IMG/VR virus record: IMGVR_UViG_2529292908_000011
Direction: 5' to 3' (one strand)
Origin: a virus
Lineage: Duplodnaviria > Heunggongvirae > Uroviricota > Caudoviricetes
DNA length: 34,254 bases
This document shows, piece after piece, positions 20,521 to 23,161 of the stretch (within the stretch, counting starts at the first letter, position 1; the number at the start of each line of letters is the position of its first letter). The notes under the pieces were generated by a model. It was not told where the DNA came from. It saw only the letters and a program-made list of their open reading frames with translations, and searched no databases. Position numbers and translations under genes: made by a program.

Positions 20521-20607
20521 AAACGGGAATTTTTTCTCTGCGTGAGAGGGGGCGCGGTGTCCAAAGCGATCGTTTTTTACGCCGGATGATACCCCCCCGG
20601 GGTCGGG

Positions 20608-20973
20608 TTACAGTCCGATGATGTCGTCCTCTCTGCCACTACCTCCGGACACCTCCGGCAGCGTCGGGTCCGGCATATCACTCGCCGCTTCACGAGCAGA
20701 CTTTTGTCGATGGCATTCGGTACAGAGCGTCCAGAGATTCGTCTCCTCATTACCACCACCGAACTGAAGTGCAATTCGGTGATCGAGTTCACTGTCACAG
20801 AGGTCAACCACACGACCACAGAGACGGCACTGCCCGGCGTCCCTGAGCCAGATATGACGCTTGAGGGAAACACGTGCACTGCCACTGACACGACGCTGTT
20901 CACCCTTCAGAATATTCACCCGTCGGGTATTCAGTGTTTTGATTCTGCTCTGGAGTGTACGAAGCTCAGCCAT
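20608..20973 (-). CDS. HNH endonuclease (packaging-associated)
   Basis: 121-aa ORF with CRLCGRVVDLCDSELDHRIALQFGGGNEETNLWTLCTECHRQK, an HNH motif with two CxxC pairs. Confidence 0.85.
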   Translation of the reverse strand: MAELRTLQSRIKTLNTRRVNILKGEQRRVSGSARVSLKRHIWLRDAGQCRLCGRVVDLCDSELDHRIALQFGGGNEETNLWTLCTECHRQKSAREAASDMPDPTLPEVSGGSGREDDIIGL

Positions 20974-21014
20974 GTAAAATCCCCGTCATATGGCAATCAG
21001 TAAAGGAAATAAAT

Positions 21015-21215
21015 ATGTCATCGAAAAACCGTACCCGCAGAACCACAACCCGCAATATCCGTTTCCCCAATCACATGATTGAACAGATCAACATCGCCCT
21101 TGAGCATAAAGGGTCCGGTAACTTTTCAGCGTGGGTTATTGAAGCCTGCAGGAGAAGGCTGGCAACAGATGCAACGCATCTGCGCCCGGCCAGCATGAAA
21201 AATAACGAGAAATGA
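21015..21215 (+). CDS. small DUF3950-like (YlcI-like) protein
   Basis: Internal ATG of ORF 20955..21215 giving 66 aa MSSKNRTRRTTTRNIRFPNHMIEQINIALEHKGSGNFSAWVIEACRRRL...; AAAGGA Shine-Dalgarno. Family assignment from memory only. Confidence 0.45.
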   Translation: MSSKNRTRRTTTRNIRFPNHMIEQINIALEHKGSGNFSAWVIEACRRRLATDATHLRPASMKNNEK

Positions 21216-21346
21216 ACGTTCGGTTACAGGAGCAGGTACCCACTGTCCTCCAACAATATTTCATCTTCATATCCGACGGAACAAGACTTACCCTGCCGGG
21301 ATGTACAGAATAACAACAGAGTGATAATTAATTTCTGATGAAATAA

Positions 21347-21688
21347 TCAGGGTGCAGAAGGACTAAAGATAAACGTTTTCTTCACGCCTTTACACGGCCT
21401 GTCCTTCTCAAATCGCCATTTTGCCATCGCCTTTACAACCTGCTCATCAAACAAATGGTGCGGCTCTGAACGGATAAACTCAATTCGGGTGACAGTACCA
21501 TCAGCACCAATATCAAACTTCACATCAACCCGTCCCTTTATATAATTTGCCGCTGCATAGGCCGGATATTGTGGTAATGCCTTAACCAACTGTCGGGGCA
21601 TATCTGTTTTATGTTGCGTACAGCCCATAACCAGAGAAGACAACAAAATAATTAACGGAAGGTTTCTTTTCATTTTCATTCCCGGCAC
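21347..21688 (-). CDS. TonB C-terminal-domain lipoprotein (moron)
   Basis: 113-aa ORF with lipoprotein-like signal MKMKRNLPLIILLSSLVMGC and ...YPAYAAANYIKGRVDVKFDIGADGTVTRIEFIRSEPHHLFDEQVVKAMAKWRF... resembling a TonB_C fold. Confidence 0.6.
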   Translation of the reverse strand: MPGMKMKRNLPLIILLSSLVMGCTQHKTDMPRQLVKALPQYPAYAAANYIKGRVDVKFDIGADGTVTRIEFIRSEPHHLFDEQVVKAMAKWRFEKDRPCKGVKKTFIFSPSAP

Positions 21689-21923
21689 AGATAAGAATAC
21701 GTCTTATTCTAACAATGCCACCCTGTCGGTCATCAATCCTCTGCTTAATGGCAACGACAATTATCCGACTTAAATCACAAATCAGACACATGACATAACA
21801 GAGCTTGCGAGGTAACACATCGTCCGGTTTCTTCCACCATCGCACCGGACCAGCGACCATGAGGGGACAACGCCGCGCTCCGTTAACGCGGTAACCAGAA
21901 CAGGTCGAAGTAATACTCGCACG

Positions 21924-22202
21924 TTACCTCCAGATGCGTTGCTGGAATGTGCGGGACGGACGCGGTGAGCGTTCGGAGTAAGGAAGCCTGACGGAGATTA
22001 TCCAGTGACGATAATCGAGGCTGAGGGCTTTCTTAATCTCGTATCCGTGTCTGCGGTAGCACTGAATTAGCCACTCGGCCTGTTCTTCAGTGCATGGGGG
22101 ATGCTGGAACCAGTCAGATTTGAAAGTGCGGGAACGCCGCCCGTGCCTGCTGGCAAAGACGGCAGAATCATCAGAATTGTGTAATTTGGTATCGTGCACC
22201 AT
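21924..22202 (-). CDS. hypothetical small protein
   Basis: Internal ATG (MVHDTKLHNSDD...) of ORF 21924..22331, chosen because the longer ORF would run through the hok terminator hairpin. Weak support. Confidence 0.25.
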   Translation of the reverse strand: MVHDTKLHNSDDSAVFASRHGRRSRTFKSDWFQHPPCTEEQAEWLIQCYRRHGYEIKKALSLDYRHWIISVRLPYSERSPRPSRTFQQRIWR

Positions 22203-22273
22203 CGGTTGTCTCTGCTGGCGCAGCAGGTGCCAGTTGTTCAGGCTGGCGTGCGAATTGTAAACCAGAATGCCAG

Positions 22274-22301
22274 GAAAAAACAAAACCCGCCGAAGCGGGT
22301 T
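22274..22301 (-). terminator. intrinsic terminator of the hok transcript
   Basis: Minus-strand AACCCGC-ttcg-GCGGGTT followed by TTTGTTTTTTCC, ~70 nt downstream of the hok stop. Confidence 0.5.
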
Positions 22302-22369
22302 ACGTGCGGGTGCGTTGAGGATGCCTGACACATCAGAGGTGGCGAGGGATTTCTCCCTCGCCGGGTCTC

Positions 22370-22525
22370 TTACTCCTCAGGTTCGTAAACTGTGAAGACA
22401 GCGACCTCCGTCTGGCCGGTTCGGATTCGTACCTCGCAGAGGTCTTTCCTCGTTACCAGTGCCGTCACTATGACGGTTAAACAGATGACGATCAGGGCGA
22501 TTAACATCGCCTTTTGCTGCTTCAT
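22370..22525 (-). CDS. hokD: Hok/Gef-family type I toxin (HokD/RelF-like)
   Basis: Internal Met of ORF 22370..22582 gives MKQQKAMLIALIVICLTVIVTALVTRKDLCEVRIRTGQTEVAVFTVYEPEE (51 aa), nearly identical to recalled HokD. Confidence 0.85.
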   Translation of the reverse strand: MKQQKAMLIALIVICLTVIVTALVTRKDLCEVRIRTGQTEVAVFTVYEPEE

Positions 22526-22582
22526 AGCCTGCTTCTCCTTGCCTTTCGGCACGTAAGAGGCTAACCTAGATTTGCCGTTCAT
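22370..22582 (-). CDS. mok-like overlapping reading frame (in-frame N-terminal extension of hok)
   Basis: The 70-aa ORF MNGKSRLASYVPKGKEKQA... extends the hok frame upstream, as in hok/mok/sok loci. Confidence 0.35.
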   Translation of the reverse strand: MNGKSRLASYVPKGKEKQAMKQQKAMLIALIVICLTVIVTALVTRKDLCEVRIRTGQTEVAVFTVYEPEE

Positions 22583-22816
22583 AGATTGAGCCTCAGATTA
22601 ATGTTAAGCGTCTTGCAGGACGCGTAATGTTAACTGGGGCTTTTCTCTATCTGCCTTTTGGTATTCATGCCTGAGACAGATAGCCTCAAGCACCCGCAGC
22701 AATTCTACTTAACTATCCTTTCCCCGCAAATCGTTTTTATCCCCAGCGACAAATCGAATACACCACCAGCGCCACCGCCATTGCGATCCCTACCGTTGTG
22801 AATGCCTCAGGCCAGG

Positions 22817-23161
22817 TCATCGTAAAACATCCTCTGCGCTTATCAGTCCGTTTCGCTTCAGGTAGTCCATCGCCTTACCCGGCAATTTACAGTCCGGCTT
22901 CGTTTTCCTCAGTTGCCAGGTTAACTGCTTTACCAGCATGGTTAACTCGTCGACCAGACGCTGATGTCCCACTGGTTTGTATTCATGCAATTTACCGGCT
23001 GGCTCTGCTGCCAGCGATGCCAGTGCGATTTCCAGAACAGCAATATCCATCTTATATGTGCGGATGATGTCATGGTCGATTGTGCCCGGTATGCACAGTC
23101 TCTGTGCTTCAATAGTCTCCTCTGCGTGAGCTATTAACTGCTCTCTGGTAAAAGTGGTCAT
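22817..23161 (-). CDS. hypothetical accessory protein (N-terminus paralogous to the 23675..24100 product)
   Basis: 114 aa [20 protein letters not shown]...[10 protein letters not shown]...; shares the MTxxTxEQLI...IAL(T/A)SL(E/A)AEP pattern with the ORF at 23675..24100. Confidence 0.5.

Follow-up and report, generated by a model that had tools for sequence, protein, structure and literature searches.

A probably complete hok-mok-sok module in the early region of a defective Escherichia coli lambdoid prophage

Within a 34,254-nucleotide stretch of viral DNA (IMG/VR record IMGVR_UViG_2529292908_000011; hereafter the window), a segment of ~430 bp at positions 22713–22275 very probably constitutes a hok-mok-sok toxin-antitoxin module (type I, HokD/HokW subfamily) in complete form, situated in the nin-like early region of a defective lambdoid prophage of E. 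coli. A preliminary description of this DNA had proposed a hok/mok toxin locus in such a prophage, with sok opposite the mok translation-initiation region; the open reading frames together with an antisense promoter and hairpin support that proposal, and the sequence features it listed were all recovered, exactly or to within a few bases. The element is of a known kind, and an identical copy is already in RefSeq. Its open reading frames, promoter and terminator sequences, complementarities and their conservation are observed directly, and all known cis elements of the locus appear intact, so far as sequence can tell, suggesting a module that is complete rather than decayed and structurally live.

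Three observations support this assignment. On the minus strand, positions 22695–22520 match Rfam RF01794 over model positions 1–157 of 157 (112.4 bits against a gathering score of 59, E=5e-25). The full-length hok mRNA and the predicted Sok RNA fold with z-scores of -7.1 and -5.3, respectively, and 0 shuffles equalled either. Among 58 unique related loci, all cis elements (tac, ucb, mok SD, dcb, sok -35/-10, hok SD and fbi) show little or no variation. The features are as follows, with element definitions for the hok mRNA (ucb and others) taken from PMC9841398.

22702–22730, minus strand: hok promoter, -10 TAGAAT at 22707–22702 and weak -35-like TTTGCG/TTGCGG at 22730–22724, read from sequence
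22277–22695, minus strand: predicted full-length hok mRNA, ~419 nt, 5' end at RF01794 position 1 and 3' end at the intrinsic terminator
22684–22695, minus strand: tac (translational activator) at the mRNA 5' end, GGGUGCUUGAGG (GGGTGCTTGAGG, 22695–22684), from fold and conservation
22636–22642, minus strand: ucb / anti-SD box AAGCCCC, from predicted folds
22591–22594, minus strand: mok Shine-Dalgarno (SD) GAGG, 8 nt 5' of the mok AUG, read from sequence
22557–22594, minus strand: predicted Sok-target hairpin, mok SD paired with dcb AGCCUC (22562–22557) and mok AUG near the loop, from the 375-nt fold
22370–22582, minus strand: mok ORF, 70 aa, ATG at 22582, in frame with hok and sharing its stop codon, from the ORF list
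22535–22540, minus strand: hok SD AAGGAG (22540–22535), 9 nt before the hok AUG, read from sequence
22370–22525, minus strand: hok ORF, 51 aa plus stop, ATG at 22525 and TAA at 22372–22370, Pfam HOK_GEF match
22341–22362, minus strand: 3' stem-loop, perfect 9 bp, GGCGAGGGA-gaaa-TCCCTCGCC (RNA 3' arm UCCCUCGCC), read from sequence and predicted fold
22308–22320, minus strand: fbi (fold-back inhibition), CCUCAACGCACCC (CCTCAACGCACCC, 22320–22308), complementary to tac and conserved in relatives
22275–22301, minus strand: intrinsic terminator of the hok mRNA, AACCCGC-TTCG-GCGGGTT at 22301–22284 followed by the T-run TTGTTTTTT, from the terminator scan
22539–22567, plus strand: sok promoter, -35 TTGCCT at 22539–22544, 17-nt spacer, -10 TAACCT at 22562–22567, read from sequence
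22574–22648, plus strand: predicted Sok antisense RNA, ~75 nt, with inferred start, 5' tail, hairpin and U-rich 3' end

Coding frames, messenger and antisense RNA

The 51-aa product had been described as nearly identical to HokD, with a mok-like extension in frame upstream. Indeed, 50 of its 51 residues are shared with K-12 HokD (98%, A46V) and 46 of 51 with HokW, and a 70-aa frame opens at 22582. Pfam PF01848 HOK_GEF matches the 70-aa product at E=6.4e-22 (77 bits against a cut-off of 22), and the same product is 89% identical to a 'host cell-killing modulation protein' of an Stx2 phage. Identical DNA in NZ_CP042892.1 is annotated hokD (WP_000813256.1), and homologues in phage records appear as MokW, 'host killer protein' or mok/hok. 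The upstream frame overlaps hok, is homologous to annotated mok genes and has an SD of its own, a GAGG homologous to the R1 mok SD (PMC9841398); translational coupling of the two frames is predicted.

The hok Tyr47 codon lies within a UACG motif (22384–22387, minus strand) that is conserved here, with Val as the adjoining residue in place of K-12 Ala. According to a recent survey, hokD mRNA is A-to-I edited at a late Tyr codon, yielding Cys, and in HokB the disulfide enabled by editing is essential for toxicity (bioRxiv 10.1101/2025.08.07.668861). Given this editing-dependent disulfide of HokB, an unedited HokD-type peptide may be less toxic.

Transcription of hok would start at G22695, 7 nt past a -10 hexamer that is nearly invariant in the 58 related loci and whose position aligns with the R1, hokC and hokB promoters. 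Two hairpins lie between tac and the mok SD on this strand. The resulting 419-nt RNA has a minimum free energy (MFE) of -169.4 kcal/mol. In both the MFE and centroid structures of the full-length RNA, tac pairs with fbi through 12 bp with one bulged C (nt 1–12 with nt 376–388); both structures also pair ucb with the mok SD region, and the mok SD is predicted to be sequestered. An RNA truncated to 375 nt is instead predicted to pair tac with ucb and to form the mok SD/dcb hairpin, a modelled refolding that resembles the closed-to-open switch described for R1 hok mRNA (PMC9841398) but is suggestive only, because truncations to 370 and 360 nt fold to other 5' structures and the outcome depends on the assumed 3' end. 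The dcb lies inside the GCCTCTTAC block, which is invariant between R1 and this locus; tac is invariant in relatives, and fbi is conserved likewise. A formal tac/fbi covariation count was dropped after MAFFT misaligned the R1 fbi, and the R1 complementarity was checked directly instead.

At the 3' end, the palindrome previously placed at 22341–22363 is present as the stem-loop at 22362–22341. By analogy with R1, where a 3'-exonuclease road-block occupies the same place (PMC1635323, PMC9841398), this stem-loop is likely to set the 3' end of the processed, active mRNA. Among relatives its pair 22358:22345 passes from A-U through G.U to G-C, a compensatory series. The intrinsic terminator, earlier put at 22274–22301, was found again as the hairpin at 22301–22284 with its T-run, the sole terminator-like site detected by the scan. 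It is common to K-12 hokD; the Stx2-phage hokW locus is without it, and homology there stops at 22306.

Insertions in the leader, as in inactivated chromosomal hok loci, had been named as a finding that would speak against a working module. In the Rfam match and the alignments the leader is uninterrupted by any IS or other insertion, and it matches all 157 model positions. RF01794 is named 'sok antitoxin', and its orientation is that of the hok mRNA leader, with tac at its start and the hok AUG at its end. A match to such a model therefore certifies a complete leader, not antisense transcription, and we rejected the minus-strand match (22520–22695) as evidence for Sok.

Evidence for the antisense gene comes from the opposite strand, which reads cttctcc-TTGCCT-ttcggcacgtaagaggc-TAACCT-agattt-G, the G being position 22574. 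From the -35 through the spacer to the -10, every base agrees with the sokW promoter of Sakai prophage 5 (Sp5), and the two hexamers align with R1 TTGCGC-17-TATCCT. In Sp5, changing TAACCT to GAGCCG abolished antitoxin activity and unleashed HokW toxicity, sokW supplied in trans restored growth after the -10 mutation, and sokW RNA was seen by Northern blot (PMC8621323). The mutagenic primers of that study alter precisely the TAACCT element present here, and its 30-nt hokW probe YO-597 matches 22537–22566 exactly. The likely start of Sok is G22574, since it lies 7 nt past the -10, the TG at 22573–22574 is invariant among relatives while neighbouring bases vary, and annotated K-12 sokC overlaps mokC by 9 nt, equal to the overlap inferred here.

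The predicted Sok consists of a single-stranded 5' tail from 22574 to ~22587 (~14 nt), a hairpin at 22588–22642 and the end CUUUUCUCU near 22648; its fold has an energy of -31.5 kcal/mol. It is complementary to hok mRNA nt 48–122, a span that includes ucb and both the SD and the AUG of mok, and as modelled it shares the tail-plus-hairpin architecture of the 64-nt R1 Sok (PMC1635323). At the level of sequence, the locus has a cis-encoded Sok gene, with a promoter and a U-tailed hairpin opposite the site of mok initiation. Sixteen nucleotides beyond the Rfam consensus lengthen the Sok hairpin through complementary bases, and this extension is common to hokW, the Rac-like locus and the P1-like locus. 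Because its bases pair to extend the hairpin and it occurs in the functional hokW-sokW, the extension is a subfamily trait, not a disruptive insertion. In the Rac-like prophage and the P1-like plasmid-phage, an additional T in the sok spacer/mok region shifts mok out of frame with hok and turns the sok -35 into TTGACC with an 18-nt spacer.

A generic sigma-70 scan of 22150–22950 called neither the hok nor the sok promoter. The scan needs at least 4 of 6 matches per hexamer, and both the sok -10 and the hok -35 have 3 of 6; we rejected this miss as proof of absence, as the validated sokW -10 TAACCT also matches at only 3 of 6. The preliminary description had expected sok opposite the mok 5' region, on the plus strand around 22560–22700. 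Strand and setting are borne out by the -35 and -10 on the plus strand and by a predicted RNA at ~22574–22648 that runs over the mok SD and AUG; the interval has to be shifted, as the promoter lies further left (-35 at 22539–22544) and 22650–22700 corresponds to the 5' hairpin of the hok mRNA, not to sok. The alignment with hok/sok loci proposed there located both the sok promoter and the fold-back elements, and a recognisable antisense promoter and terminator hairpin stand where their lack would have counted against the locus.

Prophage setting

Positions 22200–22900 (701 bases) are 100% identical to DNA of E. coli O10:H32 strain NMBU-W12E19. The annotation of that copy names the ORF hokD and has neither a mok nor a sok feature; the ORF lies between early-region genes (replication, DUF1627, DUF977, Ea22-like) and DUF968-RusA-Q. 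Recognising the locus as an apparently complete module would therefore add to its annotation: RefSeq knows it as 'hokD' only, and the textbook K-12 hokD is a truncated remnant. Related loci are widespread, the query being matched in 4,972 of 5,426 complete E. coli genomes, with 2 places per genome at the median and 11 at most.

Upstream of the module lie ORFs of 114 and 27 aa, neither with a Pfam family. The hydrophobic 27-aa ORF (22737–22820, minus strand) begins with an ATG that overlaps the stop codon of the 114-aa ORF; its end lies 7 nt 5' of the hok -35-like hexamer and 30 nt 5' of the -10. Stx2-phage homology begins exactly at its ATG, and the ORF is also found without hok, beside Ea22-like genes, in other phages. 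We considered it as a part of the module and rejected this, as it occurs without hok and conservation among hok loci begins only at ~22713.

The prophage carries a deletion of ~9 kb. The window tracks NMBU-W12E19 down to 21894, where the first 28 nt of the DUF968 (ydfU-like) gene join a TonB-family/YlcI/HNH/terS block (20300–21894) that follows the lysis genes in intact relatives. Everything between nucleotide 28 of the DUF968 gene and a point shortly after Rz is missing, and the genes lost are RusA, Q, a DNA methyltransferase, tRNAs, a SASA esterase, holin, lysozyme and Rz; PHROG and Pfam scans detected no Q, holin or lysozyme among the ORFs between hok and terS. The junction at 21894 occurs in 0 of the 5,426 complete E. 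coli genomes. Only 380 bp separate it from the end of the module, and the persistence of what looks like a full hok/sok beside such a deletion is compatible with a stabilising role, though no proof of it.

Elsewhere in the window, the DicF sRNA is present at full length (29870–29921, plus strand, 76.7 bits), as is a match to Rfam IS009 (132–330, minus strand, 221.5 bits), and together these mark the element as a Qin/Rac-like lambdoid prophage. A 95.6%-identical relative in phage vB_EcoS-689R5 (ON470583.1, 14338–15702) is in two pieces with a 'mobile element protein' between them; that copy is probably IS-disrupted, unlike the uninterrupted locus in the window.

Conservation, proposed function and the variable Sok tail

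The 58 unique related loci were selected by Hok protein identity alone. A second, pattern-derived sample has the sok promoter, mok SD, ATG and CA dinucleotide invariant by construction, and for this reason our conservation claims rest on the protein-selected sample. Nucleotide diversity (pi) was computed from the protein-selected sample and from the MAFFT-based pattern sample, with the promoter, SD, ATG and CA fixed by the pattern in the latter only; a 1-nt indel in the 5' hairpin distorted an ungapped divergence analysis, for which the MAFFT-based one was substituted.

22579–22575, Sok nt +2 to +6 (mok codons 2–3): pi 0.61
22589–22583, mok SD-AUG spacer: pi 0.35
22572–22568, sok discriminator: pi 0.28
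Within 22525–22370, hok third-codon positions: pi 0.027
tac, ucb, fbi and Sok hairpin: pi at most 0.02

Toxicity, neutralisation by Sok and the difference in RNA stability have been shown for hokW-sokW (PMC8621323) and R1 (PMC9841398, PMC1635323). By homology with plasmid R1 hok/sok and Sp5 hokW-sokW, the module most likely works as they do, and from this we infer its transcription, processing, Sok instability, toxicity and biological role. A weak promoter would produce a stable ~419-nt hok mRNA in which tac at the 5' end pairs with fbi at the 3' end. In this closed form ucb would hide the mok ribosome-binding site, allowing neither translation nor Sok binding. Slow 3' trimming toward the stem-loop at 22362–22341 would remove fbi, whereupon the 5' end could refold onto ucb and leave the start region of mok exposed within a hairpin. 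From the opposite strand, a constitutive promoter would meanwhile supply a short-lived Sok RNA of ~75 nt, whose single-stranded 5' tail would seed pairing with the exposed mok start hairpin, blocking translation of mok and hence of hok and marking the duplex for RNase III. Were sok transcription to stop or the DNA to be lost, Sok would decay first and the processed mRNA would be translated into Hok, a 51-aa membrane peptide expected to damage the inner membrane.

Candidate roles would include stabilisation of the prophage segment, help with lysis on induction as in Sp5, and the abortion of infections by other phages. In Sp5, hokW-sokW speeds lysis and doubles phage release after induction (PMC8621323). 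Such a lysis-helper role cannot apply unchanged here, because the prophage has lost Q and the lysis genes. With Q, holin and lysozyme gone, segment stabilisation or abortive infection are the more plausible current roles, unless the module is a passenger. Addiction may be one role of the locus, although intact-looking chromosomal hok loci failed tests of post-segregational killing. The part of the survey that cites Pedersen and Gerdes names hokA, hokB and hokC as such loci, with neither post-segregational killing nor a rifampicin response (bioRxiv 10.1101/2025.08.07.668861).

Those reports lend some weight to the view that the module, however intact it looks, is functionally inert and persists only as a hitch-hiker in prophage DNA; possible causes include a hok promoter of too little strength, an mRNA that never undergoes processing, or poor toxicity of unedited Hok. 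Both promoters match consensus weakly, and the host prophage is itself decaying. We nevertheless regard a silent passenger as unlikely. Every regulatory element is near-invariant in the 58 relatives and the hok third-codon pi is only 0.027, a pattern that fits ongoing purifying selection, not drift. Moreover, the Sp5 locus, whose sok promoter is the same, is active (PMC8621323), HokD was toxic in the survey's assay (bioRxiv 10.1101/2025.08.07.668861) and a single chromosomal copy of R1 hok is lethal without Sok (PMC9841398).

The shared frame and stop also raise the question of which product is the toxin, as a ribosome starting at 22582 would make an N-terminally extended Hok; the 70-aa Mok-Hok fusion could then be the main toxic product and 'mok' the true start of the toxin gene, and the arrangement is equal in the Stx2-phage mokW/hokW annotation and in K-12 mokC/hokC. 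This too seems improbable. In Rac442 and P1-like relatives a 1-nt indel takes mok out of frame, all else being kept, so the mok frame is not conserved in the subfamily, and mok codons 2–5 are the most variable positions in the module. The hok frame retains its own strong SD, AAGGAG, 9 nt before the AUG, and the 51-aa hokW ORF is toxic alone (PMC8621323).

Variation in the otherwise near-invariant module is concentrated in a 22-nt hypervariable stretch, 22589–22568, which occurs as ~8 discrete alleles; AACGGCAAATCT, carried by the window, is the commonest in the sample, and hokW has CTGAACACATGT. In predicted structures this cassette corresponds to the unpaired 5' tail of Sok and to the loop of its target hairpin, the parts through which R1 Sok first contacts its target (PMC1635323). 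As Sok is cis-encoded, any change in the cassette alters antitoxin seed and target together. We tentatively suggest, without placing great confidence in it, that the stretch could be a specificity 'barcode', with allele diversity kept by selection and co-resident modules not neutralising one another; alternatively, it may comprise merely the only unconstrained bases of a tightly constrained RNA. A barcode would let each module stay 'addictive' for its own element despite several hok/sok prophages per cell, and a selected cassette would provide a simple, testable cross-talk rule among the up to 11 hokD-like copies in an E. coli genome. A within-genome comparison covering three isolate genomes only, with two loci each, found different alleles in two and the same allele twice in the third. 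In the hok/sok literature searched, we found no statement of a hypervariable Sok-tail cassette.

Comparison with known hok/sok loci

The closest functional counterpart is hokW-sokW of Sakai prophage 5 and Stx2 phages (Takada et al. 2021, PMC8621323), which likewise sits in a lambdoid prophage early region and shares 91.9% DNA identity with the window over 22820–22306. The sok -35, spacer and -10 and the hok SD are identical, and the lengthened Sok hairpin and in-frame 70-aa mok are the same. The two differ in the allele of the Sok 5' tail and mok codons 2–5 (AACGGCAAATCT in the window, CTGAACACATGT in hokW), in five Hok residues, all among the last eight, and in the K-12-type terminator, present in the window and missing from the Stx2 locus. 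They also differ in setting: the window's prophage is without Q and holin/lysozyme/Rz, whereas the Sp5 module belongs to an inducible prophage with a holin/endolysin cassette.

K-12 hokD (relF, Qin) encodes a toxin 50/51 identical to that of the window and also resides in a Qin-like prophage, DicF being found in the window as well. Its DNA is 98.1% identical over 22539–22276, from 14 nt 5' of the hok ATG through the terminator. In K-12, relB-relE lies directly upstream, and the hok promoter, tac, ucb, the mok start and the Sok target are missing; of sok, only the -35 is left. When the K-12 relB-relE-hokD segment was aligned with the window it matched at 22539–22276 only, so that relBE is absent from the window, in agreement with the earlier remark that this locus is not beside relBE as in K-12 Qin. 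Because K-12 homology covers only that interval, the alignments indicate that K-12 hokD is the truncated form and the window holds the full-length one. The 98% identical Hok and the K-12-type 3' UTR and terminator might have pointed to a relic of the K-12 type here, a hok ORF without leader, mok or sok, but this is refuted by the alignments and next to impossible, given that K-12 homology spans 22539–22276 only with relE directly upstream in K-12, and that the whole leader (Rfam positions 1–157) is present and relBE absent in the window.

K-12 hokC/mokC/sokC (gef) resembles the window in having mok in frame and in the 9-nt overlap of the Sok and mok starts, as inferred for the window. Its Mok-Hok is 68% identical to the window's, IS186 lies ~20 bp past the hokC stop, and it is without the 16-nt hairpin extension.

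Plasmid R1 hok/sok (parB) has an equal order of elements: tac, ucb, mok SD/AUG, dcb, hok, road-block hairpin and fbi. The tac/fbi pairing is kept in R1 with different bases (GGCGCUUGAGG and CUGAAGCGCC, 386 nt apart), and the R1 sok promoter (TTGCGC-17-TATCCT) lies at the equivalent place. R1 Hok is only ~35–44% identical to Hok of the window; R1 mok is out of frame with hok, whereas the window's is in frame, and R1 Sok has 64 nt (PMC1635323) against ~75 nt predicted here. R1 hok/sok is plasmid-borne, with proven post-segregational killing.
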